NCBI GenBank assembly: GCA_034928745.1
Contig: JAYFOS010000018.1
Location: 2,103-66,102, forward strand
Origin: Rikenellaceae bacterium
GTDB taxonomy: Bacteria > Bacteroidota > Bacteroidia > Bacteroidales > UBA932
Direction: 5' to 3'
Length of the DNA: 64,000 bases
Position 1 is the first letter of the stretch. Each line of letters begins with the position of its first letter. The notes beneath the pieces were generated by a model. It saw only the letters and a list, made by a program, of their open reading frames with translations. It was not told where the DNA came from and searched no databases. The translations under genes and the position numbers were made by a program. Below, one piece after another: positions 1,422 through 62,507 of this stretch.

Positions 1422-1459
1422 ATTTTTTATTGTTATGAATTCTTTCAGTTTCAGGATGT

Positions 1460-2290: not shown

Positions 2291-2306
2291 TACTTAAAAT
2301 TTGGAC

Positions 2307-2314
2307 TAAATTTG
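2307..2314 (+). promoter_or_regulatory. Candidate Bacteroides-type -7 promoter box (TAAATTTG) for the moxR-bat operon
   Basis: Exact match to TAnnTTTG, 35 nt upstream of the ATG at 2349. Confidence 0.35.
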
Positions 2315-2348
2315 TAATTTATCCTACAAAAATACAAAATCAAACAAT

Positions 2349-3341: not shown

Positions 3342-3342
3342 T

Positions 3343-4221: not shown

Positions 4222-4226
4222 ATCAT

Positions 4227-5093: not shown

Positions 5094-5095
5094 TT

Positions 5096-6082: not shown

Positions 6083-6086
6083 GATT

Positions 6087-7088: not shown

Positions 7089-7094
7089 AGAGAT

Positions 7095-7802: not shown

Positions 7803-7814
7803 AGAATCATATAT

Positions 7815-9635
7815 ATGAATATCAACTGCATAAAAAAGTTAATACTATTATCGGGAGCCTTGCTGGTTTCAATTGCGATTTCAGCCCAGGCTGCATTTAC
7901 AGTGGATGTTCCGAGAGTTGTCGGATTGGATGAAAATTTTAGGTTAATCTTTACTGCCGAAGGGGAGCCTTCTAGCTTTGACCCTCCTCAGCTAAAAGAT
8001 TTCGATGTGCTTGCAGGTCCATCAACATCTACAATGACAAGTACTCAGATAATAAACGGAAAAAGAACAGACAGCTATCAGGTAAGTTACACCTACATAC
8101 TGCAGGCCAAGAGTATCGGAACTTTCTCAATACCATCTGCCTCAGCTGTCATTAAGGGAAAAACCTATCACACAAACCCTGTATCTGTTGAGGTTGTCAA
8201 GGGAGAGTCCGGTAATTCGGGCAATGTGTCCGGAAACACTTCTCAAAAAAGCAGTGGAACAATCTCTTCTGATGATATTTTCATGAGGATGTCGGTAAGC
8301 AAGGGAAAGGTGGTAAAAGGGGAGAGCCTCCTTGCCACATTGAAGTTATATACAAAAGTCCCGATAGGGGGGTTTGAGAATGTAAAATTCCCTACCTTCA
8401 ACGGATTCTGGAGTCAAGAGATTGACACCCCGTCAAATATAGAGTTTACCAGAGAGACTGTAAATGGTAAAATATACAATGCTGCGGTTCTGAGAAGGTA
8501 TATGCTGATACCTCAACAAACAGGCAACCTGGTAATAGACCCTTCTGAAATGACATGTCTGGTTCAGGTTAGGGCTTCGTCCGGTGGGGCGAGATCAATG
8601 TTTGATGATTTTTTTGATAGTTACCAGACAGTTAAGAAGAGGATTACTGCTCCCTCTTTACGTGTGAATGTTTCGCCACTTCCATCAGGTGCTCCTGCCT
8701 CTTTTGCCGGTGGAGTGGGAGAATTTCAATTGTCAGCAAAACTGACAAAGGATACAATAAACGCAAATGAGGCTGTTTCCCTTAAGGTCTCTATTTCAGG
8801 ATCAGGGAATCTTAATCTTGTAGAGGCCCCAAAAATCACTTTCCCTGCCGATTTTGAAGTATATGACACGAAGATTGCAGACAATACAAGCAAATCCGGA
8901 AAAGGAACATCCGGGACAAAGGAGTTTGAGTATCCACTTATCCCAAGAGGGGCAGGAGTGTTCGAATTAGGACCAGTTGAATTCAGTTATTATGATATTG
9001 GTGCCAAAAAGTACAAGACACTTACCTCCGGGAAACTTACACTAAGAGTCGGACAAGCTCTTGAGGGATCGGAAAACTCCTCGGCATCGCTACCAATGGG
9101 TGTTAACAAACAGTCTGTCAAAAGTATCGGAAACGATGTGCGATACATACGCTCAGGGTTATCCGGTCTTGTAAGGGGAAATAATTTCTTTTTCGGTTCA
9201 GTTACATATTTTGCACTTGTAGTATTGATAATCGCATCATTCTTCTTAATGGACAAATTCCTCTCAAAGAGAATAGAGAGAAACAGGGACATTGCAGGTG
9301 TCAAGAACAGGAGAGCGAATAAGGTTGCCAGGGCAAGACTAAAAAACGCAGAGTCGCTAATGAAACAAAATACGTACAGTGCTTTCTTCGAAGAGTTGCA
9401 CAGGGCAATACTCGGCTATTGCTCGGATAAACTCAATCTCTCTCTGGCAGATCTCTCCAGAGAGAAGATAGCATCCTCACTTGAAGAGAAGAGCGTTTCA
9501 AAAGAGCATTTGGAGGAGCTTCTGGCTTTAATTGAGGTTTGTGAATATGCAAGATATGCACCTGATCAGGACAAACCTGAGATGGGGCAGAATTATCAGC
9601 GAGCTATCAAATTAATTTCAGATCTGGAGGTATAG
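7815..9635 (+). CDS. batD: BatD-family (oxygen tolerance) protein
   Basis: 606 aa with a signal peptide, a large periplasmic portion, a late TM helix (FFFGSVTYFALVVLIIASFFL) and a cytoplasmic tail. Operon position after batC. Confidence 0.8.
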   Translation: MNINCIKKLILLSGALLVSIAISAQAAFTVDVPRVVGLDENFRLIFTAEGEPSSFDPPQLKDFDVLAGPSTSTMTSTQIINGKRTDSYQVSYTYILQAKSIGTFSIPSASAVIKGKTYHTNPVSVEVVKGESGNSGNVSGNTSQKSSGTISSDDIFMRMSVSKGKVVKGESLLATLKLYTKVPIGGFENVKFPTFNGFWSQEIDTPSNIEFTRETVNGKIYNAAVLRRYMLIPQQTGNLVIDPSEMTCLVQVRASSGGARSMFDDFFDSYQTVKKRITAPSLRVNVSPLPSGAPASFAGGVGEFQLSAKLTKDTINANEAVSLKVSISGSGNLNLVEAPKITFPADFEVYDTKIADNTSKSGKGTSGTKEFEYPLIPRGAGVFELGPVEFSYYDIGAKKYKTLTSGKLTLRVGQALEGSENSSASLPMGVNKQSVKSIGNDVRYIRSGLSGLVRGNNFFFGSVTYFALVVLIIASFFLMDKFLSKRIERNRDIAGVKNRRANKVARARLKNAESLMKQNTYSAFFEELHRAILGYCSDKLNLSLADLSREKIASSLEEKSVSKEHLEELLALIEVCEYARYAPDQDKPEMGQNYQRAIKLISDLEV

Positions 9636-49908: not shown

Positions 49909-50586
49909 TTACATCTTTCTTAATCTGTAGCCCACACCCCTGATATTCTCTATATTGACAGGTGTCGAAGCTAGCTTTTTCCTGAGATGAGAGGCAAGGG
50001 CCTCAAGAGATTTTTTAGTGTCAATATCTTTATCTTCCCATATAGCGATAACAAGATCGGAGACTTTACAAATCTGATTAAAGTTGTTGCACAAAATCTG
50101 CAGCAACCTGTTTTCATAAAATGAGAGGATTGTAGCTTCGCCATCTTGCATCATCAGACACCTCTCCTCAGGGGAGTAATTTATATTTCCAAGAGTGAAT
50201 ATATCATTGTTTTTGCTTGATATCTGCATGCACTTCTGTACTCTTATCAATAACTCTCTTAATCCAAAAGGTTTTTTTAGATAATCACTGCAGCCAATTT
50301 CAAAGCCATTGGCAACGCTACTGTCATCGCTTATTGAGGTGATAAATATTATAGGGATATTCTTGTCTACGGCTCTTATAAGCCGGGCAACCTCAAATCC
50401 GTCGATTTCAGGCATATTTACATCAAAAAGGCAGAGGTCCGGGTGGAATTGATTGTATTGTTCCAACGCAGAACGACCGTCACTTACAAATGAGAGTTCA
50501 TAACCGCTCATTTTAAGAAACTCGCACATGGCATAGCCAAAGTTCAATTCATCATCGGCTAGAAGTATCCTCTTTCCCATGCTCAC
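49909..50586 (-). CDS. OmpR/PhoB-family response regulator (receiver + winged-helix)
   Basis: Receiver motifs ILLADDE and LCLFDVNMPEIDG (phospho-Asp), KPF. C-terminal winged helix ending RGVGYRL. Confidence 0.85.
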   Translation of the reverse strand: MSMGKRILLADDELNFGYAMCEFLKMSGYELSFVSDGRSALEQYNQFHPDLCLFDVNMPEIDGFEVARLIRAVDKNIPIIFITSISDDSSVANGFEIGCSDYLKKPFGLRELLIRVQKCMQISSKNNDIFTLGNINYSPEERCLMMQDGEATILSFYENRLLQILCNNFNQICKVSDLVIAIWEDKDIDTKKSLEALASHLRKKLASTPVNIENIRGVGYRLRKM

Positions 50587-51922
50587 AATTTATTGATAAA
50601 GTAAAAGTGCTTCCTTTCCCCACTTCGCTGACAAGTGTGATCTTACCTTTATGGGCCTTGACCACCCACATCACATAATTAAGGCCCAATCCGAACCCTT
50701 TGCCTTTCTGTGCATGCTCTTTCTTGCTTCCTCTGTAGAATTTCTCGAACACTTTGGCTTGTTCCTCTTTAGGAATCCCAATGCCGTTGTCTTCTACAGA
50801 TATATAAAAGTATTTGCCCTCTTTGCGGGTAGAAACATTAATCTTGACTGAGTCATCCGAGTACTTTATCGCATTATCTATCAGATTACCTATCGCATTT
50901 GAAATATGTAGCTCATCTCCGAATATTTCCTCTCCTCCTTCAGGTATCTGTGTTGTAATTACTATACTCTTTTTAGGATCTACATTGTGCCTGGCTATAT
51001 GCGGATCTATAGCCTCATGTATATTGAATACTTTTTTCTTTAACGGTGCTTGTCTCTTTTCAAATTTATTAATATCAAGTATATTCTCTATAAGACCATT
51101 AAGAAAATACAACTGCTCTTTTGACTTTCCGAGAAAGTAAGGGGCAGTTTTACTGTCAGCCATCTCTGCAACTTCAAGGTTTGTAATGGAAGATTGTAAT
51201 GGCGATCTGAGCTCATGTGTCAGGAAGTGGGTGATATTCTCTTTCACTTTGGCAAGTGATACTTGCTTGTACAACATGCGTGTCTGAAGCACTATACTTA
51301 CCATAATAAATATAGTCAATACAAGTGACGAGAGCAGCATTATCAGCAGATCTCCCTTGAATACAGAAGTAGGGTAATCTATATGTGCCAGAATTATTAG
51401 ATCTTTTGAAGTAGTAAGTGGTAATTCTATATCGAAACCGGATGTAATGAAAAATGAAGATCCTTTGGATTTGTATTCACAGGTATATATTGCTTTAGAA
51501 TCAGAGTATTTAAGTATATAATTTGTAATGCTTCCATCACTAATCATTTTTTTTGAGAATAGCGCAGATAAGCTATCAATGTTTAGAGGTAGAGTGTTTT
51601 TGTATGCGTCTTGTAATGCTTCTTCAATGGAAACCTTTGTAAATTGTTTGCCACCCTTAAGATCAATATCTTGTATTGCCTCTTCTTGGTTTTGTATGTC
51701 TGAAGGTATATTATTAGATATAACTACAGAAAAACCATCGCTTTTACTGATTTTTTTTAACCTAGAGTTAAGTTCCTTGTTGACAGCCTCCTTAAGTATA
51801 GACTCAGTCTGGTTGCGATAGTCATCCTTCTCACTGTCAATGAGTCTGTATAGCCAGACTCCCTGGATTCCAAGAAGGAAAAAGATTGCAATAATCGATA
51901 TGGAGAGTGCCTTGTTCAGCAT
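50552..51922 (-). CDS. Sensor histidine kinase with a roughly 170-aa extracytoplasmic domain
   Basis: TM1 (ISIIAIFFLLGIQGVWLY), a periplasmic segment and TM2 (LLIMLLSSLVLTIFIMVSIVL). H-box FLTHELRSPL, N-box NLIDNAIKYS, G-boxes DNGIGI and GFGLGL. Confidence 0.85.
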   Translation of the reverse strand: MLNKALSISIIAIFFLLGIQGVWLYRLIDSEKDDYRNQTESILKEAVNKELNSRLKKISKSDGFSVVISNNIPSDIQNQEEAIQDIDLKGGKQFTKVSIEEALQDAYKNTLPLNIDSLSALFSKKMISDGSITNYILKYSDSKAIYTCEYKSKGSSFFITSGFDIELPLTTSKDLIILAHIDYPTSVFKGDLLIMLLSSLVLTIFIMVSIVLQTRMLYKQVSLAKVKENITHFLTHELRSPLQSSITNLEVAEMADSKTAPYFLGKSKEQLYFLNGLIENILDINKFEKRQAPLKKKVFNIHEAIDPHIARHNVDPKKSIVITTQIPEGGEEIFGDELHISNAIGNLIDNAIKYSDDSVKINVSTRKEGKYFYISVEDNGIGIPKEEQAKVFEKFYRGSKKEHAQKGKGFGLGLNYVMWVVKAHKGKITLVSEVGKGSTFTLSINCEHGKEDTSSR

Positions 51923-51953
51923 TTTTCAGCAAATTATCAGTAATTGGTCAGCG
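51915..51953. promoter_or_regulatory. Four helically phased TCAG-core direct repeats (candidate response-regulator operator)
   Basis: TTCAGCA (51915), TTCAGCA (51925), ATCAGTA (51936) and GTCAGCG (51947). TCAG cores start at 51916, 51926, 51937 and 51948, giving spacings of 10, 11 and 11 bp. They lie in the divergent region between the kinase and the peptide ORF, and the first copy overlaps the kinase start codon. Confidence 0.3.
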
Positions 51954-51962
51954 TTCTGTATG

Positions 51963-51970
51963 CAAATGTA
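51963..51970 (-). promoter_or_regulatory. Candidate -7 promoter box (TACATTTG on the minus strand) for the kinase/regulator operon
   Basis: The reverse complement of CAAATGTA is an exact TAnnTTTG, 41 nt upstream of the kinase ATG. The phased repeats sit between this box and the ATG. Confidence 0.3.
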
Positions 51971-52025
51971 ACAATTATTCTTAATTTATTTGTACAACAA
52001 AAAACAAATAAAATACATCAAAGCC

Positions 52026-52154
52026 ATGAGAACAAATTTTGAAAAACTGAATGAACAAGAGATGATTAATGTAGTAGGTGGTGACAAAATTTTAAGATAT
52101 ACAGACGAAGAAGGTAACGTATACTACATAATTATTCGTGACGGAAGACCGTAA
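52026..52154 (+). CDS. Double-glycine-leader precursor peptide (42 aa): MRTNFEKLNEQEMINVVGG / DKILRYTDEEGNVYYIIIRDGRP
   Basis: Below the size cut-off of the ORF track; translated by hand (ATG 52026, TAA 52152-52154). The leader has F-15, L-12, E-8, M-7, V-4, G-2 and G-1, matching the LSxxELxxIxGG-type consensus cleaved by C39 peptidase domains. Co-oriented 95 nt upstream of a C39-ABC exporter. Confidence 0.7.
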   Translation: MRTNFEKLNEQEMINVVGGDKILRYTDEEGNVYYIIIRDGRP

Positions 52155-52199
52155 TTGATTTAAGTCTTTTATCTGAAGTTTGCCCCATTTTGATGACAA

Positions 52200-52218
52200 T
52201 TTGCTGATTTTCAGCAAA
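52200..52218 (+). other. AT-rich hairpin between the precursor ORF and the exporter gene
   Basis: TTTGCTGA (52200-52207) pairs with TCAGCAAA (52211-52218), an 8-bp perfect stem with a 3-nt loop. No downstream T-run, so it is not a canonical intrinsic terminator. Confidence 0.25.
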
Positions 52219-52249
52219 CAAGGATTCCTTTGATTGCTAAATTTAAATA

Positions 52250-54448
52250 ATGTACAGGAGACCATTCAGACATTTCCATCAACTGGACTCCATGGATTGT
52301 GGCCCCACATGCCTGAGAATGGTTGCCATGCATTATGGACACCATTATACTTTAGAGACACTGAGGGAAAAGTGTGAATTTTCCCGGGAGGGTGTCAATC
52401 TGTTCGGTATTGCAAAAGCCGCAGAGAGTTTAGGGTTCAGATCTACAGGAGCAAGACTCTCTTTCGAAGAGTTGTGCAAAGCTCCTTTTCCTTTAATAGT
52501 GCATTGGAATCAACGCCATTTTGTGGTTTTGTACGGAATCAAGGGAAAAGGCAAAAACTTAAAAATGCTTATTGCAGATCCGGCCACATCACTTGTCGAA
52601 CTTAGTGAGTCTGATTTTAAAAAATCGTGGTACAGTACTGTAAAAGACGGAGTCGGATTGGGTATAGCACTTATTCTGGAACCTACACCTAAGTTCTACC
52701 AAGAGGAGGGAGAATCTGTAAACAGACGAGGTTTCAAATTTCTCGGAACATATCTAAAACCATATAAGAAATTTATAACGCAGCTGATCATCGGGCTCTT
52801 TATCGGAAGCCTGTTGCAGCTCATTTTGCCTTTCCTTACCCAGAGTATAGTAGATATAGGTATAGGCACACAGGATATAGGCTTTATCTGGCTTGTACTG
52901 ATAGCCCAACTTATGCTGGCCATAAGTATGGCTTCAGTGGAGTTTATCAGGGGTTGGATATTGTTGCATATGGGAACCAGAATAAATATTTCGCTTATAT
53001 CAGATTTCCTCACTAAACTGATGAAGCTTCCCATTGGCTTTTTTGACACAAGAATGACTGGCGACCTCCTCCAGAGGATTGATGATCATAAAAGAATACA
53101 GAATTTTCTGACGGGATCCTCACTTAATGTTCTATTCTCACTTTTCAATATTGTAATTTTCGGTGCGGTATTATTATACTATAATCCCATTATTTTTCTG
53201 ATCTTTATTCTCTCTTCCGTTGCATATATCTTGTGGGTGTTAGTTTTTATGAAGAGAAGAAGAGAGCTGGATAACAAAGCTTTTACACAAAATGCTGCGA
53301 ATCAAAATTCTGTAATACAGCTCATTACTGGGATGCAGGAGATTAAGCTTAACAGTTGTGAGCGGCAAAAAAGATGGGAGTGGGAGAGAATTCAGGCACG
53401 TCTATACAGGCTTAACATAAAAGGATTGGCCCTCGGGCAATATCAAGAGGCAGGAGCCACACTGATCAATCAATTAAAAAATATTTTGATTACTGTATTT
53501 GCTGCAAGTTCGGTACTTAATGGAGAACTAACTCTCGGTATGATGCTCTCTGTACAGTTTATCAACGGGCAACTGAACGCTCCGCTCATGCAGGTTATAT
53601 CATTTCTGAAGGCATCACAGGACGCAAAGATATCCCTGGAGAGATTGGCAGAGATACATGACAAGGGAGATGAGGAAAAAGATTCTGACAACCTTATTAC
53701 GAAAATTGCAAAGGGAAAGGCTATCATAATAGAGAACCTCTCTTTCAAATATGAAGGTGCAGGGTCTCCGATGGTTTTAAAGAATATAAATCTCTCTATT
53801 CCAAAAGGTAAGGTTACTGCAATAGTTGGTACGAGTGGTAGTGGCAAGACTACTCTGGTTAAACTTCTGTTGGGATTTTATACTCCGCAGGAGGGTAGTA
53901 TAAAGTATGGAGAAAACAATCTGTTTTCGCTCAGTATGGAACGCTGGAGAGAAAAGTGTGGTGTTGTGATGCAAGACGGATTTCTCTTTTCTGATACAAT
54001 AGCCGGTAATATAGCGCCTGGAGTTGAGTCAATTGATGTCAAAAAACTAGAAAAAGCTGTTGAGGTTGCTAATATAAGAGATTTTGTAGAGAGTCTGCCT
54101 CTATCTTACAATACAAAAATTGGGCAGGAGGGACATGGACTGAGCCAGGGGCAAAAACAGCGTCTGCTGATTGCACGTGCAGTATACAAAGATCCGGAAC
54201 TAATATTGTTTGATGAAGCAACAAACTCGCTCGATGCAAATAATGAGATGCAGATTATGAGTAATCTGGATGGATTTTTTGTGGGCAAGACAGTTCTTGT
54301 AGTGGCACACAGGCTTAGTACGGTTAGGAATGCCGATAATATTGTCGTTTTAGACAAAGGTGTGATAACCGAATCGGGAACACACAGTGAGCTCATTGAG
54401 AAAAAGGGAGCTTACTGGCAACTTGTAAAGAATCAATTATATGTCTAA
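52250..54448 (+). CDS. Peptidase-containing ABC transporter (PCAT): C39 cysteine peptidase + 6-TM + ATPase
   Basis: N-terminal HQLDSMDCGPTCL (Gln11, Cys17), HFVVLYG (His90) and IADP (Asp110) form an intact C39 catalytic set. TMD follows. Walker A GTSGSGKTT, signature LSQGQKQR, Walker B LILFDEAT. Confidence 0.92.
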   Translation: MYRRPFRHFHQLDSMDCGPTCLRMVAMHYGHHYTLETLREKCEFSREGVNLFGIAKAAESLGFRSTGARLSFEELCKAPFPLIVHWNQRHFVVLYGIKGKGKNLKMLIADPATSLVELSESDFKKSWYSTVKDGVGLGIALILEPTPKFYQEEGESVNRRGFKFLGTYLKPYKKFITQLIIGLFIGSLLQLILPFLTQSIVDIGIGTQDIGFIWLVLIAQLMLAISMASVEFIRGWILLHMGTRINISLISDFLTKLMKLPIGFFDTRMTGDLLQRIDDHKRIQNFLTGSSLNVLFSLFNIVIFGAVLLYYNPIIFLIFILSSVAYILWVLVFMKRRRELDNKAFTQNAANQNSVIQLITGMQEIKLNSCERQKRWEWERIQARLYRLNIKGLALGQYQEAGATLINQLKNILITVFAASSVLNGELTLGMMLSVQFINGQLNAPLMQVISFLKASQDAKISLERLAEIHDKGDEEKDSDNLITKIAKGKAIIIENLSFKYEGAGSPMVLKNINLSIPKGKVTAIVGTSGSGKTTLVKLLLGFYTPQEGSIKYGENNLFSLSMERWREKCGVVMQDGFLFSDTIAGNIAPGVESIDVKKLEKAVEVANIRDFVESLPLSYNTKIGQEGHGLSQGQKQRLLIARAVYKDPELILFDEATNSLDANNEMQIMSNLDGFFVGKTVLVVAHRLSTVRNADNIVVLDKGVITESGTHSELIEKKGAYWQLVKNQLYV

Positions 54449-55754
54449 AAAAGGGAAGATAGAGATAAAGTCCGATGATGTCAATGAGATCCTTTCGAGA
54501 GCACCGGGGTGGACAGTTCGGTGGGGAAATACATTCATACTGGCTATCGTCACTTTTTTCTTAATCGGCAGCGCTTTGTTCAGATATCCGGACAAACTAT
54601 CAGCTCCAATAACAGTTACTTCTGAAAACCTTCCAGCACAACTCATGGCGAAAACAACAGGAAGGGTTCAGGAGCTGTTTAAGAGCGACGGAGATGAGGT
54701 CTCTAAGGGAGATGTAATTGCTATGATAGAAAATTCTGCCTCTTTCAGCGATTATGTGAAATTGACAAATTCCATGGATTCTTTGTTTGGCAATGGGTTT
54801 CTGGTCGAAAATCTTGTTGTTGAGGATTTGCCGGTCAATCTTCAGCTGGGGGATATGCAGGATGCCTACAACCAGTTCCTGAGCAGAGCCAGAGAATACA
54901 GTAATTTTATAAACCTTGACTATCACAGGAAAAAATCAATTTTGATAAAAAGAGAACTGGAGGCGCAAAGGTCAATGATAAGACAATACAACAAGCAAAT
55001 GTCTATATCGGCAGAACAGATAGAAATAGTTTCCCGCAGATATTCAAGAGACAGCTCCCTGTTGTTACAGAAAGTGATTTCGCAGTCTGATTTTGACAAC
55101 ACTAAGGCTGCAAAACTTTCGACAAAACAAGATTACGAAAATGTAAGGAGAAGTCTGGATGACCTTAAACTTAACGCACTCCAGAGCGAACAATCTCTTC
55201 TGGACCTTGAACTGGATAAAGAAAAGCAGAAGAGCAACCTTCTGTCAGGATTGTCTGGGGACATGGATTTGTTGAAAGCTGCTATAAGAAAGTGGGAGCA
55301 GGATTATCTTCTAATATCTCCTCTTAACGGTAAGCTCTCCTTTACCCGGTTTTGGCAGAGAAACCAGAATGTGACAGAGGGCGATGCCGTATTTACGGTT
55401 GTCCCGAATAAGGAAGCCAATATTAAAGGAAAGATTTTCCTTCCTCTTGAGGGTGCCGGGAAGGTGAAAATAGGCCAAAAGGTGAATATCAAACTTGATA
55501 ATTTCCCTTATATGGAATTTGGCATGGTGGAGGTTAAGGTTCTAAGAGTCTCTTCTGTCCCGGCGCTTGTTGATAATAAGCAAGTATATGTGATAGATGT
55601 GCTTTTGCCACGGAAACTTATTACAAATTACGGAAGAGAGCTCCCATTCTCCGAGGAGATGAGGGGCACTGCAGAGATAATTACAGAAGACCTTAGTATC
55701 CTTCAACGTATAGTATTTCCAGTCAGACATATTTTAAAAAGCAAGATGTTATGA
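54441..55754 (+). CDS. HlyD-family membrane fusion / secretion adaptor protein
   Basis: N-terminal TM (ILAIVTFFLIGSALF), lipoyl-like hairpin (GDEVSKGDVIAMIE), a long coiled coil and a C-terminal beta-barrel region. Overlaps the PCAT stop by 8 nt. Confidence 0.85.
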   Translation: MSKKGKIEIKSDDVNEILSRAPGWTVRWGNTFILAIVTFFLIGSALFRYPDKLSAPITVTSENLPAQLMAKTTGRVQELFKSDGDEVSKGDVIAMIENSASFSDYVKLTNSMDSLFGNGFLVENLVVEDLPVNLQLGDMQDAYNQFLSRAREYSNFINLDYHRKKSILIKRELEAQRSMIRQYNKQMSISAEQIEIVSRRYSRDSSLLLQKVISQSDFDNTKAAKLSTKQDYENVRRSLDDLKLNALQSEQSLLDLELDKEKQKSNLLSGLSGDMDLLKAAIRKWEQDYLLISPLNGKLSFTRFWQRNQNVTEGDAVFTVVPNKEANIKGKIFLPLEGAGKVKIGQKVNIKLDNFPYMEFGMVEVKVLRVSSVPALVDNKQVYVIDVLLPRKLITNYGRELPFSEEMRGTAEIITEDLSILQRIVFPVRHILKSKML

Positions 55755-56116
55755 GTGTGACTGGGGTGATACTGATAACCGGGTTTACTTCTGCCATATG
55801 CTCAAGTGTTATAGCCTCATTACTCTATAAGGTGAAATGGTTTTCTTACAGGAAAAAAAGTCCGTGGCAGGTACTTAATCTTGTATTTACAGCACTCTAT
55901 CAATATAATAATAAGTTTTATAATCATTTTCCTATGTTGAGGGAATTGATGGCGTGCACATTATTAACCTGTCTTTGCTTTAAATATCTTATCAATCCTG
56001 ATTGCTACACTCATCCGGAATGTATTGCAGGCACTTTCATGCTTGTAATACTGGTTACCACGGCAGTTCATGTTTTAGTGTACAGTAAGTTCTATGACGA
56101 AAAACTTGCCCTCTGA
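55751..56116 (+). CDS. Small Cys-rich membrane protein, translationally coupled to the HlyD-family gene (candidate immunity/accessory protein)
   Basis: ATGA start/stop overlap at 55751-55754. About 3 predicted TM helices (VILITGFTSAICSSVIASLLY, LMACTLLTCLCFKYLI, GTFMLVILVTTAVHVLVY). 8 Cys in 121 aa. No family recognised. Confidence 0.5.
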   Translation: MSVTGVILITGFTSAICSSVIASLLYKVKWFSYRKKSPWQVLNLVFTALYQYNNKFYNHFPMLRELMACTLLTCLCFKYLINPDCYTHPECIAGTFMLVILVTTAVHVLVYSKFYDEKLAL

Positions 56117-56140: not shown

Positions 56141-56584
56141 ATGAAAAGAGTGCTACAGCCATTTCTAACTATTGTTCTCCTTATATTTTATATAATGGCT
56201 AGCTTTGGTATTGGTGTCCATGAGTGCTCTGCAAGTGGTACTGTAAATGTGCGGATATTTGCATCCTCAAAGAGTTGTGATTCCATTCATTCAATCTGCT
56301 GCTGCAAGCATCATCATCACGATGGTTTACCCAAACATCAGCACCACTCTTCCAAATGTTGCCATACAACAATTCATCAACTGACAAATGATTACGATAT
56401 TTCTCAGTTAAATTTCAAGTTTTCACAAATTCCGATCTTCAATCTTATTCCGGAATTCATTTCTTCATTTTCTAACGACTTATCATCGGATGAGTTACTT
56501 ATAGCTTTTTACAACGGCTATACTCCTCCGCCCCTTATTAAGGAGACTGATCCATGTTCATACCACTCTCAGTGGAGATTGTAG
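56141..56584 (+). CDS. Membrane-anchored His/Cys-rich protein (resembles the HYC_CC_PP family as I recall it)
   Basis: N-terminal anchor ending GVHEC, then CCCKHHHHDGLPKHQHHSSKCCH and a later YTPPPL, giving H-x-C, CC and PP motifs in that order. Confidence 0.6.
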   Translation: MKRVLQPFLTIVLLIFYIMASFGIGVHECSASGTVNVRIFASSKSCDSIHSICCCKHHHHDGLPKHQHHSSKCCHTTIHQLTNDYDISQLNFKFSQIPIFNLIPEFISSFSNDLSSDELLIAFYNGYTPPPLIKETDPCSYHSQWRL

Positions 56585-56629
56585 AGAATCTATCTTTTTC
56601 GGATAGAAACTTTTTACAATTTAAAGAAC

Positions 56630-58825
56630 ATGAAAAAAATAATTTTATCAGTAATATTACTATATATTACCACATTCTCCTTTGCACAGACAATTAATGG
56701 CATTGTAAAGGTACAACGCATTAGCGGAGATGTGGAACCACTTCCTTATGCCTCGGTATATTGGCTTGAAGGAAAACTCTCATTGGAATCAGATGAAGAG
56801 GGAAAATTTACAATTAAAAACAATAATTCTCAGAAAGTATCCCTGATAGCGACATATATCGGATATTCTAAGGATACGGTAGTTCTTGCCCCAGGGGAGG
56901 AGAAAGCGGAATTTCTTCTAAAAGAGGGGAATAATCTAAATGAAGTCAGAGTTGTCGGAAGACAGGAAGGCAATTACATATCTAAAATGACACCAGTAAA
57001 GACAGAGGTAATCTCAGCAGCCGGATTGTGCAAGATGGCTTGTTGTAACCTGGCAGAGAGTTTTGAAAACTCGGCAAGCGTGACTGTCGGTTATTCAGAT
57101 GCTATAACTGGTGCCAGACAGATCAAATTACTAGGATTGTCCGGACAATACACCCAGATGCTTGATGAGAACCGACCGGTAATGAGAGGTATCGCTGCTC
57201 CCTTCGGTCTCTCTTATATTCCGGGTCAATGGCTTGAGAGCATACAGATAGCAAAAGGGCCATCCTCTGTTGTTAATGGTATCGAGGCGATTACCGGGCA
57301 GATAAATATGGAGCACAGGAAGCCGACAGCGGAACAGCCATTGTTCATTAATCTTTTCCTCAGTGACCAGCTTAAGGCAGAAGCCAATGTTGCCTCATCA
57401 CTACAACTGAATCAAAAGTGGAGTACTGTCATACTGGGACATGTCTCTAAAGATTTTATGAATCATGATGGTAACAATGACGGATTTAAGGACGATCCGT
57501 TGACAACACAGTTCAACTTGTCCAATCGCTGGCTTTATGCTCCGTCAAATGGTATTCAGCTTAGATTTGGATTTAAGGCTATGAGTGATGAAAGGATTGC
57601 CGGCATGAATGATTTCAAGGAGGATTCAGAGGTGACTAACACCCTCTGGGGATCAAAAATAAATAATAAAGGTCTGAACGGCTATGTAAAGCTTGGAATT
57701 CCGCTTAATGAGAACAACTCAAAGAATGTGGCCGGTGTCGTAGATTATTCTATGTATGAAATGAACTCATTCTTTGGACAAAAAAGTTATGATGCAACTC
57801 AGAATTCGGTTTTTGTCAACCTGATGCTTCAGAATCAGATAAATGACAAACACAAGTATATACTGGGTCTCAGCGGGCAATACGATAATTTTGACGAATT
57901 CCTTAACAGTGCCTCAATAGGAAGAGTTGAACAATCTGCCGGAGCGTATGGAGAGTATACCTACACAAATGGGGATAAGATTACTTTCGTTACCGGCCTC
58001 AGGCTAGATAATAACAATATCCACGGATGGCTGTTTGCTCCAAGAGTAAATGTAAAGTATGCATTTACTGAGAAGCTTATCCTGAGGGCATCCGGTGGCA
58101 GAGGGTTCAGATCTCCAAATCAGGTTGCCGATAATCTGGGTATTTTGTCAACAGGCAGACGTATCCAACTGGAGGCAAATCCGGATATGGAGGATGCCTG
58201 GACTTATGGGATGAACCTTACCGGTTATATGCCTTTTGGCTTTGATAAAAATGCAACTCTCAGCTTTGAGTACTTCCGGACAGATTTTCAACATCAACTA
58301 ATCGTTGACCAAGAGAGAGATCTTTCGACCATATGGTTATATAATCTTTCAGGACGTTCATATACAAATACATATCAGGCCGACTTCTCTTTTCAGCCGA
58401 TAGAACGCTTTACCGTCTTGCTGACATACAGACTTACTGACGCAAAGGTGACTCTTGAGGGTCAAGGGCTCGTGGAAAGGCCTCTTATGAGTAAGTATAA
58501 GGGAGTGCTTAATTTGCAATATGCAACAAGAATGAACAAATGGACATTCGATTTTACTGCACAGCTCAATGGTCCGGCAAGGTTGCCGAATTTCATGACT
58601 GAGGAGTACTCTCCTGTCTATCCTGTACTGTTTGCCCAAGTAACAAAGAGGTTCAAGAGTCTTGAAGTCTATGTCGGAGGAGAGAATCTGACCAACTATA
58701 GACAGAAAAATCCAATTCTGAATGCTGATCAGCCGTTCAGTGAAGGATTCAACACGACTGTAATATGGGGCCCGCTCATGGGAGTCCGCTTTTATGCAGG
58801 TCTTCGTTTTACTCTTTGGAAATAA
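56630..58825 (+). CDS. TonB-dependent receptor with an N-terminal CarboxypepD_reg-like domain
   Basis: Signal peptide, INGIVKV...EGKFTI carboxypeptidase-regulatory-like fold, plug (NLAESFENSASVTV, IQIAKGPSSVVNG) and a 22-strand-sized barrel ending RFTLWK. Confidence 0.9.
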   Translation: MKKIILSVILLYITTFSFAQTINGIVKVQRISGDVEPLPYASVYWLEGKLSLESDEEGKFTIKNNNSQKVSLIATYIGYSKDTVVLAPGEEKAEFLLKEGNNLNEVRVVGRQEGNYISKMTPVKTEVISAAGLCKMACCNLAESFENSASVTVGYSDAITGARQIKLLGLSGQYTQMLDENRPVMRGIAAPFGLSYIPGQWLESIQIAKGPSSVVNGIEAITGQINMEHRKPTAEQPLFINLFLSDQLKAEANVASSLQLNQKWSTVILGHVSKDFMNHDGNNDGFKDDPLTTQFNLSNRWLYAPSNGIQLRFGFKAMSDERIAGMNDFKEDSEVTNTLWGSKINNKGLNGYVKLGIPLNENNSKNVAGVVDYSMYEMNSFFGQKSYDATQNSVFVNLMLQNQINDKHKYILGLSGQYDNFDEFLNSASIGRVEQSAGAYGEYTYTNGDKITFVTGLRLDNNNIHGWLFAPRVNVKYAFTEKLILRASGGRGFRSPNQVADNLGILSTGRRIQLEANPDMEDAWTYGMNLTGYMPFGFDKNATLSFEYFRTDFQHQLIVDQERDLSTIWLYNLSGRSYTNTYQADFSFQPIERFTVLLTYRLTDAKVTLEGQGLVERPLMSKYKGVLNLQYATRMNKWTFDFTAQLNGPARLPNFMTEEYSPVYPVLFAQVTKRFKSLEVYVGGENLTNYRQKNPILNADQPFSEGFNTTVIWGPLMGVRFYAGLRFTLWK

Positions 58826-58870
58826 TTAATCCTATTCTAAACTTTTTACTAATTTTACAAACAATAAATC

Positions 58871-59188
58871 ATGAAAAATATTATTAAATCAATCTCGCTT
58901 TTACTAGTAGCATCAATCTTTATCTTTGCGAACACAGCAAACGCGCAGGGCAAAAAGAGCAACAAGGATGTTGAAATAACATTCTCTGTTGATATAGACT
59001 GTCCTTCTTGCAAGAAAAAACTTGAGGACAAGCTGCCATTTGAGGCAGGTGTGAAGGATATGAAAATTAATCTTGAAGAGCGCACAATCTGGATGAAGTA
59101 TGATCCAAGCAAGACAGATAAGGTGAAACTTGCAAAAGCTATAGAGAAACTCGGTTATTCTGCCAAAGAGATCGAGGTTAAAAAATAA
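58871..59188 (+). CDS. Secreted heavy-metal-associated (HMA) domain protein
   Basis: Signal peptide (FANTANAQG), a ferredoxin-like fold length of about 75 aa and a CxxC metal motif DCPSCKKK at the canonical loop-1 position. Confidence 0.8.
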   Translation: MKNIIKSISLLLVASIFIFANTANAQGKKSNKDVEITFSVDIDCPSCKKKLEDKLPFEAGVKDMKINLEERTIWMKYDPSKTDKVKLAKAIEKLGYSAKEIEVKK

Positions 59189-59194
59189 CAAGTA

Positions 59195-60004
59195 ATGAAA
59201 GGTTTGACCTCCCTAGCCTTTTTAATGTTAATCACCTTTAATCCACTCTGTTCGCAGGTGAATAAAGGTGATTCTCCTTTTTATGAGAAGATGCGTCTTC
59301 TCTCTTTCCAAGAGAGAGAGAAGCTTATTTCGCAGGAGGTACTTTCAGGAGATATCCCTGAATACATGATAGGTTTTGTTGAGGTCAGGTTCAAAGGCAT
59401 TGATTCACGGGGAGTGCGTCACAAAGTGAAAATTTTTGTCAAGCCTGACTACGTTACTATAGGGAAAGGTCAATCTTCATTTATCGTACCTATGAGCCCA
59501 GCTACTGCTCAGAAAATTGCCGATTCCCTGGATTGCTCATTGCCTACGCCAATGGTTGTAGATATTATATATGCCAATGCAAAGCTCAAGGTCGAACCGT
59601 TCAATTATATACCGCGTGGAGATAGAAATGAGACACCGGATATATTTTTTGACCATTCAAGAGTTATATTTGCACAGATTCGGGCATCAGGATATAATCC
59701 CGGAGTCTTTATTGCCGGAAGTAAAAAAGATATTGTAATAACATCTCTGTTGGAAGACTCTTTACGGAGAACCAATGTTACTATATACGGCTGGCACAGA
59801 TTGGACGGAACTCCCATACAGCCTGTATATAACAAACATCTTGGAAGCTATGTGGATTATAGTCACGGAGTAAGGCTCATATCCAACAAGGTTTTTATAG
59901 ACGGTAAAGAGTACAATTACAGAGACGTTTTGAAAGATAGCGTATATCATGTGCTATTGAGCAATGAGAGAGAACCATTTAAGATAACATCATACCCATA
60001 CTAG
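59195..60004 (+). CDS. Hypothetical secreted protein
   Basis: 269-aa ORF with a signal peptide (FLMLITFNPLCSQ) and no recognisable motif. Starts 6 nt after the HMA gene. Confidence 0.5.
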   Translation: MKGLTSLAFLMLITFNPLCSQVNKGDSPFYEKMRLLSFQEREKLISQEVLSGDIPEYMIGFVEVRFKGIDSRGVRHKVKIFVKPDYVTIGKGQSSFIVPMSPATAQKIADSLDCSLPTPMVVDIIYANAKLKVEPFNYIPRGDRNETPDIFFDHSRVIFAQIRASGYNPGVFIAGSKKDIVITSLLEDSLRRTNVTIYGWHRLDGTPIQPVYNKHLGSYVDYSHGVRLISNKVFIDGKEYNYRDVLKDSVYHVLLSNEREPFKITSYPY

Positions 60005-60008
60005 ATCT

Positions 60009-62507
60009 ATGAAAAAAGTATTATTAACCTCTTTCCTATTATTTTTATCTTTTCTGGCTGTTGATTGCAATGCTCAGTCATGGATAAGGATCAATCAAGC
60101 CGGATATCTGCCTCAGGATATCAAGGTCGCTGTATTTATGTCGCTTGATAGTCTGACGTCTGACCAATTTGAAGTAGTTGATGCCTTGTCACTTAAATCT
60201 GTATTCAAAGGTAACGGTAGAAAGGTTAACGCTAAGGTGTGGGGAATGAAAAATGCTTACAGGATGGATTTTTCATCAATACAATCCAGCGGAGGATATT
60301 ATATCACTTCAAATGGTGTTAAATCACCTGTTTTCAGAATCTCTCCGGATTCATATAACGGACTTTCGGATCTGTTGTTGGTCTATATGAGGCAGCAAAG
60401 ATGTTATGATAATCCGTATACAGGTGAAATTTGCCATGCTGACGACGGTTATATAGTCAATCATCCGACAAGAAACGGTGAGAAGATAGATGTACGCGGC
60501 GGTTGGCATGATGCCACTGATTACCTGCAATATCAGACAACTTCAGGCACGGCTCTCTATCATATGATGTTTGCTTGGCAGCAGCAGAAAGACAAATCGG
60601 TATTTAAGGATTTTTTTGATGCAAGGGGTAGAAAAGGCTCTAATGGAATTCCTGATATCTTGGATGAAATCAGATGGGGAATGGACTGGATGCTCAGGAT
60701 GAATCCTGAGGATAAAGTTATGTTCAACCAGATTGCTGATGATAGGGATCATGCCGGTTTCAGACTCCCTCAAAATGATAAAGTTGATTACGGCTGGGGG
60801 CCGGGTAAGGGACGGCCTGTCTATTTTGTAACAGGAGAACCTACTGGCCTGAAGAAATGGGTGAACCGCACAACCGGGGTTTCGTCTGTTGCAGGAAAAT
60901 TTGCCTCTTGCTTTGCACTGGGCGCTGAAATCTTTAAAGAATCAGATCCGCAATATTCCGGAAAGCTGATGGAAAAGGCAAAGCAAGCATACGCCTTTGC
61001 CGAGGAGAAGCCTGGTAATACTCAGACAGCGTGCGTTGTTTCTCCGTATTTTTATGAGGAGGATACTTATGTAGATGATATAGAGCTTGCAGCTGCCACT
61101 TTTTACAATTTAAGCAATGAAGCTGAATGGGGTGAAAAGGCTGATTACTGGGGTGAACTGGAGCCGGTAACACCTTGGATGGAACTTGGAAGAGGGAGAC
61201 ACTACCAATTTTATCCTTTTATAAATCTGGGTCATTACTACCTTGCTCAATCATCTGACCAGAAGGTTCGAGATAAATATATTGCATATATGAAAGCGGG
61301 TCTTGAAAGCCTGAAAAACAGAGCTACAGATGATCCTTTCATTTATGGCGTGCCATTCCTCTGGTGTTCAAACAATCTGGTTTCTGCAGCCATAACGCAG
61401 GCACATCTCTACAGGAAAGTGACAAACGATAGTACATATCTTGAAATGGAGATGGCATTGAGAGACTGGTTATTCGGTTGCAATCCATGGGGAACCTCCA
61501 TGATCGTTGGTTATCCCGAAGGTGGGGATTATCCTGATTCGCCTCACTCTTCATATACGCAGGTGAATGGAGATCTTACAATAGGCGGATTGGTGGATGG
61601 ACCAATATATTATGACCTGTTTCACGAGAGGGCAGGAGGGGCACTCAGAAAAGCGGACAGCTATGCGCTTTTCAACAATGGAAAGGCTGTTTACCACGAT
61701 GATATAGGGGATTATTCCTCAAATGAGCCGACAATGGATGGTACTGCCGGCCTTACTTATTATTTCTCTGCTATGGAGTCAGAGGGAAAAGATTATGAAC
61801 GGCTGAGAGAGAAAGCTGCAAATGCTGAAAAAGACACATACGGGGCAATAGTGAGGATAAATCCGGACAAGAAAACAATTTATCTGGTATTTTCTGCTGA
61901 CTCGATGTTCCAGGGAGGAGAGACTATTCTCAAAACACTTGATGCCAACAAAATTAAGGGGTCTTTCTTTTTTACAGGCAACTTCCTGAGGTTGGATAGT
62001 ATGAAGGGTATTATCTCGAAAATCGTGAAGAGAGGTCATTTTGTGGGGGGGCACTCTGACGGACATCTGCTTTACGCAGAATGGGGAGCTAAGCGTCAGA
62101 CACTTGTGTCCCCTGACAGTCTTACAGCAGATCTTCGACGAAACTATCAGGAGTTGTCAAAATTCGGAATCAAGCCATCCGATGCATTGTGGTATCTTCC
62201 TCCATACGAGCATTATAATATGGAATCTGTAGAAGTTGTATCAAGGGCAGGACTAAGGACTATTAACTATACCCCCGGGACTGCTACTCCTGCAGATTAT
62301 ACTACACCGGACATGAAAAGCTATAAAAGTAGCAAGGAGCTAATTGATAAACTTTTTACCTTTGAAAAGGAGAAAGGACTGAACGGGGCAATCATCCTGA
62401 TTCATCCCGGTGTCCAAGAATCCAGGAGTGACAAGCTTTATGATCAATTGGGCGTAATTATAAAGAGGCTTAAGAAGCTGGGTTATACATTTGAGAGACT
62501 TAAATAA
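60009..62507 (+). CDS. Fusion protein: Ig-like N-domain + GH9 glycoside hydrolase + C-terminal CE4-type polysaccharide deacetylase
   Basis: WIRINQAGYLP (CelD_N-like start), GGWHDATDY (variant of the GH9 GGWYDAGD motif, both Asp retained), SNEPTMDGTAG (GH9 acid Glu region). After about residue 620: LVFSAD...GHSDGHL (HSxxH) and ILIHPG, typical of NodB/CE4-like deacetylases. Confidence 0.75.
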   Translation: MKKVLLTSFLLFLSFLAVDCNAQSWIRINQAGYLPQDIKVAVFMSLDSLTSDQFEVVDALSLKSVFKGNGRKVNAKVWGMKNAYRMDFSSIQSSGGYYITSNGVKSPVFRISPDSYNGLSDLLLVYMRQQRCYDNPYTGEICHADDGYIVNHPTRNGEKIDVRGGWHDATDYLQYQTTSGTALYHMMFAWQQQKDKSVFKDFFDARGRKGSNGIPDILDEIRWGMDWMLRMNPEDKVMFNQIADDRDHAGFRLPQNDKVDYGWGPGKGRPVYFVTGEPTGLKKWVNRTTGVSSVAGKFASCFALGAEIFKESDPQYSGKLMEKAKQAYAFAEEKPGNTQTACVVSPYFYEEDTYVDDIELAAATFYNLSNEAEWGEKADYWGELEPVTPWMELGRGRHYQFYPFINLGHYYLAQSSDQKVRDKYIAYMKAGLESLKNRATDDPFIYGVPFLWCSNNLVSAAITQAHLYRKVTNDSTYLEMEMALRDWLFGCNPWGTSMIVGYPEGGDYPDSPHSSYTQVNGDLTIGGLVDGPIYYDLFHERAGGALRKADSYALFNNGKAVYHDDIGDYSSNEPTMDGTAGLTYYFSAMESEGKDYERLREKAANAEKDTYGAIVRINPDKKTIYLVFSADSMFQGGETILKTLDANKIKGSFFFTGNFLRLDSMKGIISKIVKRGHFVGGHSDGHLLYAEWGAKRQTLVSPDSLTADLRRNYQELSKFGIKPSDALWYLPPYEHYNMESVEVVSRAGLRTINYTPGTATPADYTTPDMKSYKSSKELIDKLFTFEKEKGLNGAIILIHPGVQESRSDKLYDQLGVIIKRLKKLGYTFERLK

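Follow-up and report, generated by a model that had tools for sequence, protein, structure and literature searches.

To our knowledge, peptide pheromone circuits are regarded as a speciality of Gram-positive bacteria. In the ComCDE/ComAB, BlpCRH/BlpAB and PlnABCD systems, a peptide with a Gly-Gly (GG) leader is exported through a peptidase-containing ABC transporter (PCAT) and an HlyD-like accessory protein, the genes of a kinase and a regulator are adjacent, the promoters carry direct repeats, and pherotype-like allelic variation is concentrated in the sensor and in the peptide core. The kinase of these systems is a polytopic HPK10 protein, the regulator belongs to the LytTR type and the peptide is an amphipathic helix. 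NisRK and SpaRK are made of other parts, a classical kinase with two transmembrane segments and an extracytoplasmic loop and an OmpR-family regulator, which activate the operon of the exported peptide that is sensed; lanthionine enzymes and LanFEG/LanI immunity belong to these loci as well. In diderm bacteria, class II microcin loci such as that of colicin V (cvaC-cvi-cvaA-cvaB) combine a GG-leader peptide, a PCAT, an HlyD-family adaptor and a small membrane protein with an outer-membrane factor encoded elsewhere, and their peptides are toxic. RaxX of Xanthomonas is a GG-leader peptide that leaves the cell through the PCAT RaxB and the HlyD-type protein RaxA (RaxX/RaxSTAB); two-component systems are linked to its control, and the peptide is sulfated on tyrosine and has a plant receptor as its target. 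Within the Bacteroidota, the only products so far associated with PCAT loci are toxins, the bacteroidetocins, whose GG-leader peptides are processed by a PCAT (PMC6671954; PMC8546649). A bacteroidetocin locus consists of four genes, encoding a protein with five transmembrane segments, a class IIa-like toxin, a thiol oxidoreductase and a PCAT (PMC6671954). No peptide signalling system of Bacteroidota was described in the literature searched. Here we analyzed a locus on a 64,000-nucleotide stretch (the window) of contig JAYFOS010000018.1 of a Rikenellaceae bacterium (GCA_034928745.1), in which a two-component system diverges from the genes of a GG-leader peptide, a PCAT, an HlyD-type adaptor and a small polytopic membrane protein (smallTM).

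The best explanation of this block is a self-contained module for the production, export and control of a small unmodified peptide. Conserved repeats lie on both sides of the peptide gene and vary together with the regulator, and only the sensor and the peptide core are hypervariable between alleles. The module comprises the following features:

49909-50586, minus strand: response regulator of the OmpR/PhoB type, 225 amino acids (open reading frame map and Pfam)
50552-51922, minus strand: sensor histidine kinase, 456 amino acids (open reading frame map, Pfam and motifs)
51353-51847, minus strand: periplasmic sensor domain of the kinase, amino acids 26-190 (transmembrane segments, identity and model)
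51923-52025: divergent intergenic gap of 103 bp between the kinase and peptide genes
51926-51969, plus strand: operator-like array of direct repeats with 11-bp phasing (sequence pattern and conservation)
51963-51970, minus strand: putative promoter of the kinase-regulator operon, TACATTTG (sequence and conservation)
51985-51992, plus strand: putative promoter of the peptide operon, TTTATTTG (conservation and consensus)
52026-52154, plus strand: GG-leader precursor peptide, 42 amino acids (conserved open reading frame and TIGR01847)
52186-52217: second operator-like element, between the peptide and PCAT genes (conserved repeats)
52250-54448, plus strand: PCAT, 732 amino acids (Pfam, structure matches and motifs)
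54441-55754, plus strand: HlyD-type membrane fusion or adaptor protein, 437 amino acids (Pfam and NCBIfam)
55751-56116, plus strand: smallTM, 121 amino acids (open reading frame map; no family match)

The kinase and regulator genes overlap by 35 nt, the PCAT and HlyD genes by 8 nt and the HlyD and smallTM genes within an ATGA sequence, while 95 nt separate the precursor gene from the PCAT gene. All six genes had been proposed in a first-pass annotation, and their coordinates, domains, overlaps and catalytic residues agreed with the open reading frame map and Pfam. None of the block proteins reached an equivalog cut-off in the NCBIfam scan and, therefore, none is a named orthologue. The window around the module is core chromosome (infB, nusA, lpxC-fabZ, proS, tilS, sppA) with an even G+C content. 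Mobile-element genes, said to be absent beside the block, were indeed not seen in the window; the flanks hold the housekeeping genes tilS, sppA, proS, nusA and infB.

The same annotation had likened the block to Com/Blp/Pln loci, however assembled from HisKA and winged-helix parts. The architecture is as described, but it is not unprecedented, as NisRK/SpaRK works in this way. In its functional layout the block may be likened to Com/Blp/Pln, yet it lacks their defining HPK10 and LytTR parts. The kinase possesses only two transmembrane segments, a HisKA-type H-box and a periplasmic domain of approximately 165 residues, and the output domain of the regulator is Trans_reg_C, a winged helix of the OmpR/PhoB type associated with hexamer repeats of 11-bp phasing. 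Moreover, in this diderm host the secreted peptide is separated from the sensor by an outer membrane, and its predicted structure is a beta-hairpin and not an amphipathic helix. NisRK/SpaRK is closest in its parts, since there too a two-transmembrane kinase and an OmpR-family regulator adjoin the peptide operon. The block contains neither lanthionine enzymes nor LanFEG/LanI, its peptide core is free of Cys and its leader is presumably removed by a C39 peptidase; new relative to NisRK/SpaRK are the diderm Bacteroidota host and the unmodified GG-peptide. Class II microcin loci have in common with the module the diderm host, the GG-leader, the PCAT, the HlyD-family adaptor, the small membrane protein and probably the reliance on an outer-membrane factor whose gene lies elsewhere. 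The module differs in its much shorter, anionic core, in the dedicated two-component system that diverges from the operon and has an operator, and in smallTM, which is dispensable in one lineage; a toxic action, as exerted by microcins, is only a possibility for the present peptide. The Rax system is similar in its Gram-negative host, GG-leader peptide, PCAT and HlyD-type adaptor, but it has no divergent dedicated kinase and regulator with phased repeats, and the sequences are unrelated. With bacteroidetocin loci the module shares the phylum and the processing of a GG-leader peptide by a PCAT. The HlyD adaptor and the two-component genes, both present in the module, are not among the four bacteroidetocin genes (PMC6671954); furthermore, the peptide is unrelated and Cys-free, and the block contains no oxidoreductase.

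The distribution of the module was studied with tblastn, using all proteins of the window as queries against each of the fetched loci (related loci are numbered with an L). The host lineage consists of relatives of Bacteroidales bacterium CF, almost entirely metagenome-assembled genomes (MAGs). The closest GTDB species representative is Bacteroidales bacterium CF itself (CP006772), whose PCAT is 94% identical; ten more MAG species, labelled Bacteroidales, Rikenellaceae or 'Muribaculaceae', have PCATs with 77-94% identity. The regulator and kinase genes diverging from the peptide, PCAT and HlyD genes were found in all loci of the peptide family with enough upstream DNA, comprising 11 GTDB species representatives and metagenome contigs. 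Thus, the neighbourhood check suggested for the earlier proposal, whether the two-component genes are syntenic with the exporter, was positive on every sufficiently long contig, even where the flank was altered. The gene sppA lies directly beside the regulator gene in the window and in L001, L008, L009 and L030; an insert of 4-5 kb separates the two in L002-L005 and L007, and in L018-L023 and L033 sppA is replaced by an RND efflux operon. On the other side, a cassette encoding an HYC_CC_PP (DUF8199) protein, a TonB-dependent receptor and an HMA protein follows in most loci. L040 and L046 lack it, and there the gene of a 269-aa protein (p269) comes immediately after the smallTM gene. As the flanks vary while the core stays, the invariant unit is the two-component pair together with the peptide, PCAT and HlyD genes. 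Beyond the lineage, the closest orthologues of the PCAT, in Dyadobacter (48%) and Filimonas (50%), are not accompanied by this two-component system, whose linkage with the exporter is therefore specific to this lineage of Bacteroidales. The Filimonas PCAT lies in a toxin-type layout as in bacteroidetocin loci, next to a Cys-rich GG-peptide and VKOR/thioredoxin-type genes.

The control region between the divergent operons is strongly conserved. Over 70 bp (51926-51995) the window showed 83-99% identity to eleven other loci, compared to 32-58% at the fourfold degenerate sites of the PCAT gene. This stretch harbors the array of three to four TCAGCA copies with 11-bp phasing (TCAGCAAATTA / TCAGTAATTGG / TCAGCGTTCTG / TATGCAAATGT), which begins four bases from the kinase start codon and whose repeat columns are invariant or nearly so across 12 loci. 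Three consecutive TCAGY-N6 units are found at a single place in the 64 kb, against 0.04 occurrences expected by chance. Head-to-tail hexamers one helical turn apart are the classic arrangement for dimers of the OmpR/PhoB family, and the array (51926-51969) is predicted to be the binding site of the response regulator, corresponding as a pattern to the promoter repeats of Com/Blp/Pln. Downstream of it, the sequence TTTATTTG is invariant in all aligned loci and deviates by one mismatch from TAnnTTTG, the -7 promoter element of Bacteroidota known from Bacteroides promoters; we regard it as a putative promoter element of the peptide operon. From its position the repeats would lie at about -73 to -30, where an activator of the PhoB type would sit. 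On the opposite strand, TACATTTG is a perfect and conserved TAnnTTTG facing the kinase gene and, thus, possibly the promoter of the kinase-regulator operon. Since it overlaps the fourth repeat, the regulator may also control its own operon. A scan for sigma-70 promoters and terminators was of no informative value for Bacteroidota.

A second element (52186-52217) is present between the peptide and PCAT genes in all lineages. It consists of minus-strand direct repeats (TCAGCAAATTG / TCATCAAAATG) and a plus-strand TCAGCAA, and contains the 8-bp palindrome TTTGCTGAtttTCAGCAAA. An RNA hairpin or attenuator at this place was considered and rejected: the fold was no better than that of shuffled sequences (z -0.9), and L033 retained only the minus-strand repeat pair without hairpin pairing. 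Both findings argue for a DNA site rather than an RNA structure. Inspection by eye did not reveal a TAnnTTTG downstream of the element that could serve as a minus-strand promoter. No other paired repeat sites were detected elsewhere in the 64-kb window.

The repeats and the regulator changed together. In L022, L023 and L033 every half-site at both elements, six or more sites, reads TGAG instead of TCAG, and in exactly those lineages the recognition helix of the regulator is altered from SLEALASH(L/V)RKKL to (A/T)LEA(L/T)TSNLRKKL. A concerted change of so many sites along with the helix is expected if one protein reads all of them, and both changes probably represent a single evolutionary event. 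Judged from the sequences, this is the strongest single observation for a regulatory link. The regulator is otherwise the most conserved protein of the block, with 98-99% identity to close relatives and a ratio of nonsynonymous to synonymous substitution rates (dN/dS) of 0.01. It gave Pfam matches to Response_reg (1.1e-25) and Trans_reg_C (9.2e-13) and contains the phospho-acceptor D55 (FDVNMP), K105 and the recognition helix SLEALASHLRKKL; its top NCBIfam match was RprY with a score far under the cut-off.

The precursor peptide reads MRTNFEKLNEQEMINVVGG (leader, 52026-52082) followed by DKILRYTDEEGNVYYIIIRDGRP (core of 23 residues, 52083-52151). Several features indicate that its open reading frame is a real gene: it is kept in all related loci together with leader, GG and stop position; leader and GG are nearly invariant; and the leader matches the model TIGR01847 for bacteriocin-type signals exactly at the cut-off (15.7 bits). 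Within the core, the turn and the second strand (TDxxGNVYYIIIxDG) are conserved, and positions 2-7 and the turn residues are variable. The mature 23-mer has a mass of 2.8 kDa, an isoelectric point of 4.9, a charge of -1.2 and no Cys. AlphaFold2 (AF2) predicted a beta-hairpin with strands at residues 20-26 and 32-37 and a predicted local distance difference test score (pLDDT) of 83-89 in the core. As modelled, this anionic hairpin would be unlike microcins and bacteroidetocins. Enzymes for its modification, including those of the LanB/C/M type, were not present in the block according to the open reading frame map, Pfam and NCBIfam. The peptide family is narrow: an index of 5.8 billion proteins yielded 9 clusters, and when 1.84 billion proteins were searched exhaustively with a profile, about 8 short representatives were recovered. 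Long matches to PKD, Ig-like and LapA repeats were also obtained (P0015, P0021, P0026), as the core scores against their repeated LRVTDDDGN..DTV.I.V hairpins; we attribute them to the shared VTDxxGN hairpin motif, a structural resemblance and not homology, which suggests that the free peptide imitates one F-G hairpin of these domains. In L010 (9280-9654), a region with a masked run of N, two tandem peptide paralogues were observed, one of them with the divergent, Cys-containing core RFVITFIDMNSIKCCEVIENCTDRYQSAEIVIC.

The PCAT, for which the first-pass annotation had assumed a true processing exporter, bears out this assignment. It matched Peptidase_C39 (PF03412, 6.1e-33), ABC_membrane (PF00664, 4.1e-34) and ABC_tran (PF00005, 6.2e-33), contains the oxyanion-hole residue Q11 and the catalytic residues C17, H90 and D110 of C39 peptidases, and aligned in full length with PCAT1 (4ry2) from residue 2 and with ComA (8hf4) from residue 7. 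Its nucleotide-binding domain shows the Walker A and B, signature and H-loop motifs (GTSGSGKT at 527, LSQGQ at 631, LILFDE at 651 and AHR at 686), and a GG-leader substrate is encoded nearby in all loci. The adaptor possesses one N-terminal transmembrane segment (28-50) and matched HlyD_3 (1.4e-8) and Biotin_lipoyl_2; against NCBIfam type_I_hlyD it scored 6.5e-26 and 91 bits, below the cut-off of 208.65. Its gene is coupled to that of the ABC transporter, as in type I and class II microcin export. SmallTM, without a family match in Pfam and NCBIfam, shows the conserved motifs RELM and KF(Y/F)DE. It had been described as a Cys-rich membrane protein with an ATGA overlap; gene and overlap stand, but no Cys position is conserved in every orthologue. 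It is a usual but not obligatory member of the block, translationally coupled to HlyD. Its gene is missing in L033 (12505-14238), where peptide and exporter are intact, as a natural variant or by possible decay.

The kinase gave a Pfam match to HATPase_c (1.5e-26) and one to HisKA (5.5e-5) that at 23.6 bits was just under the cut-off of 26.9; the H-box with H236 and the N, G1 and G2 boxes are present. Hydrophobic segments at about 4-28 and 186-218 flank a stretch of approximately 165 residues, which must therefore be periplasmic. The second segment is followed directly by the dimerization/phosphotransfer and catalytic (DHp/CA) domains, and the Pfam scan gave no HAMP match in between. The membrane-distal part of the sensor domain (amino acids ~63-187) is allelic and hypervariable. 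The periplasmic domain is the fastest-evolving segment of the locus, with 58-64% amino acid identity where the cytoplasmic half has 94-98%, a dN of 0.32-0.35 and a dN/dS of 0.20-0.25, compared to 0.03 for the cytoplasmic kinase. Positive selection is not claimed, no dN/dS value exceeding 1 and dS being saturated at ~1; the sharply bounded identity valleys indicate allele replacement by recombination instead. For the pair L039 and L014, sliding-window nucleotide identity is 93-97% overall but only 43-57% across kinase residues ~63-187; it is back at 90-97% over the N-terminus of the kinase, the promoter and the leader, and the peptide core shows a further drop to 70-73%. On the protein level the identities are 96% (PCAT), 95% (HlyD), 98% (cytoplasmic kinase), 59% (sensor) and 70% (peptide core). 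Sensor and peptide core thus form two separate divergent islands around a conserved promoter and leader.

Sensor alleles fell into the groups L001, L013 and L037, and L009 and L036, while the window, L038, L039 and L014 each stood alone; every allele group has its own peptide variant. Pairs with nearly identical sensors and divergent peptides were not found among these loci, but the converse was seen (window versus L009/L036). L036 is a mosaic, similar to L001 along the locus and to L009 within a patch of ~0.8 kb that spans sensor and peptide, and by its sequence sensor and peptide appear to have moved together into another background. In partial Mantel tests on 23 loci, sensor and peptide-core divergence correlated with r = 0.41, 0.47 and 0.52 when divergence of the cytoplasmic kinase, PCAT or HlyD, respectively, was controlled for (p ~2e-4, a value that is liberal for related sequences), while the control comparison of HlyD with the peptide gave r = 0.01. 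By analogy, this variation resembles that of the pherotype loci agr and com. An AF2 model of the sensor (six-sequence alignment, pLDDT 70) shows a long N-terminal helix and a four-stranded sheet. A PDC-like fold is not claimed, Foldseek against the PDB having given only noise, and a homologue search with the sensor domain recovered no more than 5 partial proteins. Sensing of metals by the kinase was rejected, the sensor alignment showing no conserved His, Cys or Met.

We propose the following course of events. The 42-aa precursor would be made from the promoter in the 103-bp divergent region and cut after Gly-Gly by the C39 domain of the PCAT, and the 23-residue hairpin would be exported by PCAT and HlyD adaptor, presumably along with an outer-membrane factor encoded elsewhere. 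Phosphorylated regulator would bind head-to-tail to the T(C/G)AGCA repeats with 11-bp phasing upstream of the promoter and also to the second set of repeats, downstream of the peptide gene and ahead of that of the PCAT, thereby setting the transcription of the operon. The most likely input to the periplasmic domain of the kinase would be the mature peptide itself, and the resulting positive feedback would amount to autoinduction similar to Com/Blp or nisin, made from PhoR/EnvZ-type parts in a diderm. The repeat pattern and its co-variation make it highly probable that the regulator binds the repeats and controls the peptide operon, and the conserved leader and C39 residues let us predict with equal confidence a cleavage after GG and the export of the peptide. 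Sensing of the mature 23-mer by the kinase, resulting in autoinduction, is suggested by the allelic variation and appears to us a close call, slightly on the doubtful side. A pheromone (quorum-sensing) system of a diderm Bacteroidota, with a PCAT/HlyD-exported hairpin 23-mer, a periplasmic PhoR/EnvZ-type kinase and recombining pherotype pairs, is a bolder and distinctly tentative proposal.

A number of points weigh against peptide sensing. A 2.8-kDa peptide cannot pass back through general porins, and the outer membrane blocks its return to a periplasmic sensor. Either some of the peptide is released or sensed in the periplasm, which would be self-reporting and not population sensing, or an importer is encoded elsewhere; the module contains no dedicated peptide importer, and a TolC-like outer-membrane factor was found neither in it nor among the window proteins scanned. 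Re-import by the neighbouring TonB receptor as a required part of the module was rejected, as the HYC_CC_PP-TonB receptor-HMA cassette is absent in L040 and L046 and p269 homologues stand alone in other contexts. The coupling of smallTM to the exporter looks like that of a bacteriocin immunity or accessory gene, and repeats within or adjoining the 5' region of the kinase gene are compatible with activation or repression. Concerning the co-variation, the window and L009 display the same sensor valley (42-57% nucleotide identity); the sensors of the window and L009/L036 are 58-61% identical, but their peptide cores are nearly the same, with two substitutions. The pair of window and L009 is a genuine counter-example, unless specificity depends on one or two residues of the core (Tyr6 versus Ile6). 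For the nine closest loci alone, the correlation of sensor and peptide was r = 0.24 (p = 0.08), the p-values of this test again being liberal. Sensor and peptide core are only 0.2-0.7 kb apart, and linkage or recombination blocks can therefore mimic co-evolution; the overall dN/dS of the sensor (0.2-0.25) stays under 1, and the sensor model had no significant Foldseek match in the PDB (E > 0.01, TM-score ~0.23, ribosomal proteins).

The main alternative is a regulated microcin-like toxin that would be secreted through PCAT and HlyD, with smallTM as immunity or accessory protein and a kinase that responds to another periplasmic cue (a competitor product, envelope stress or a nutrient) and not to the peptide. 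We consider this possible but, on the whole, unlikely. Precursor, PCAT, HlyD and smallTM make up the established four-gene layout of class II microcins, database homologues of the peptide are labelled 'bacteriocin' and its leader fits TIGR01847, the distant Filimonas orthologue of the PCAT lies in a toxin-type cluster, and in the pair of window and L009 the sensor diverged without the peptide. The hairpin could, moreover, act on an outer-membrane protein by strand augmentation, and the Bacteroidota PCAT loci tested so far reportedly make toxins, the bacteroidetocins, which target BamA (PMC6671954; PMC8546649). On the other hand, an anionic, Cys-free core (charge -1.2) of 23 residues is unlike known microcins and bacteroidetocins (PMC6671954), and the putative immunity gene is absent in L033 in spite of an intact peptide and exporter. 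The C-terminal strand and turn of the peptide are strongly conserved, while toxins in an arms race usually vary along with their immunity genes, and the divergence of the peptide core follows the sensor and not HlyD, in a comparison from which smallTM was left out. A toxin may also be its own inducer, as is nisin, and this alternative therefore partly overlaps with the autoinduction model; by this analogy, a dual role as toxin and inducer would be compatible with both.

Much less can be said for a structural or aggregative peptide, a hairpin (NVYYIII) that self-assembles outside the cell into a matrix or amyloid-like material, its production being timed by the two-component system. The predicted two-stranded hairpin has a run of beta-branched and aromatic residues, its core resembles the F-G hairpin of PKD and Ig-like repeats (VTDxxGN), and in Synechococcus GG-motif EbfG peptides exported by the PCAT PteB are reported to enable biofilm formation (PMC4997328). 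Such a role leaves the hypervariability of the sensor and its co-variation with the peptide unexplained, and the peptide gene is single and of low copy; we judge it improbable. Still harder to uphold is the view that the two-component genes are neighbours of the exporter merely by descent and regulate the HYC_CC_PP/TonB receptor/HMA cassette or distant genes. All loci stem from one lineage of Bacteroidales and retain a wider synteny (sppA, tilS, TonB-dependent receptor, p269, GH9). In addition, the genes from the peptide to past p269 are all co-directional with gaps of 4-45 nt, and read-through into the metal cassette is therefore possible. But L040 and L046 lost the cassette and kept the two-component, peptide, PCAT and HlyD genes, the divergent pair stays when the upstream flank changes, the conserved repeat arrays flank the peptide gene on either side and are absent from the rest of the window, and the sensor lacks the conserved His, Cys or Met typical of metal sensors. 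We therefore regard a neighbourhood by descent only as very improbable.

The peptide-sensing model has consequences beyond this locus. If it is true, the module would be an independent and mechanistically different reinvention of the Gram-positive Com/Agr logic. With the peptide as signal, it would show how a diderm solves the outer-membrane transit of a 2.8-kDa pheromone, and pherotype-like diversification would arise outside Firmicutes. If the product is a regulated toxin instead, the locus would still add a new family of peptides and the first case of a Bacteroidota GG-peptide exporter with a regulatory system dedicated to it. In any case, the module is a compact, conserved and testable candidate, which offers a defined 23-mer, a sensor domain of ~165 amino acids, a T(C/G)AGCA operator with 11-bp phasing and a natural allele series that predicts specificity.

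Individual loci deviated from the common organization. In L014 (~700-8630; MAG SM1-B10.1) the kinase gene breaks off near codon 345, and an element of high G+C content, which carries a tyrosine recombinase (7071-8477) and helicase- or primase-like open reading frames, replaces the regulator gene and sppA; the peptide, PCAT and HlyD genes are intact. This is either a recent insertion of a mobile element into the kinase gene or a chimeric contig. In L043 (6689-7198) HlyD matched at residues 1-61 and 326-433 only, suggesting an internal deletion, and in L040 (3024-3640) the match to the regulator was broken into two overlapping parts, owing perhaps to a frameshift or a sequencing error. The insert between sppA and the regulator gene of L004 (3395-7648) encodes two lipoprotein-like proteins (334 and 411 aa), a GntR-type regulator, an SPFH/band-7 protein and a small membrane protein. 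The RND operon beside the module in L018-L033 is headed by a gene for an outer-membrane efflux protein (OEP) and forms a separate transcription unit.

Directly after the module, whose right-hand boundary at 56116 appears reasonable, follows the cassette at 56141-59188. The first-pass annotation had placed the block next to a metal-related cluster; this cassette is co-syntenic in most relatives, but it is separable from the module. The HYC_CC_PP/DUF8199 protein, on whose family the literature search found no publication, is membrane-anchored and rich in His and Cys (CCCKHHHHDG...HQHH..CCH), the TonB-dependent receptor has an N-terminal CarboxypepD_reg domain and the secreted HMA protein contains CxxC. 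Together they probably constitute a metal-uptake unit. The gene at 59195-60004 encodes p269, a secreted protein of 269 aa without a matching family in Pfam or NCBIfam. It is a member of a widespread uncharacterised family with 360 homologues across Bacteroidota including Salegentibacter, always of ~270 aa, which stand alone in unrelated contexts in Salegentibacter, Prevotellaceae and other Bacteroidales. Four nucleotides after p269, a secreted fusion protein of 832 aa is encoded at 60009-62507. Its orthologue in L018 matched the Pfam domains of GH9 (CelD_N and Glyco_hydro_9) and a polysaccharide deacetylase; in L033 the gene of the fusion protein is split into two genes.

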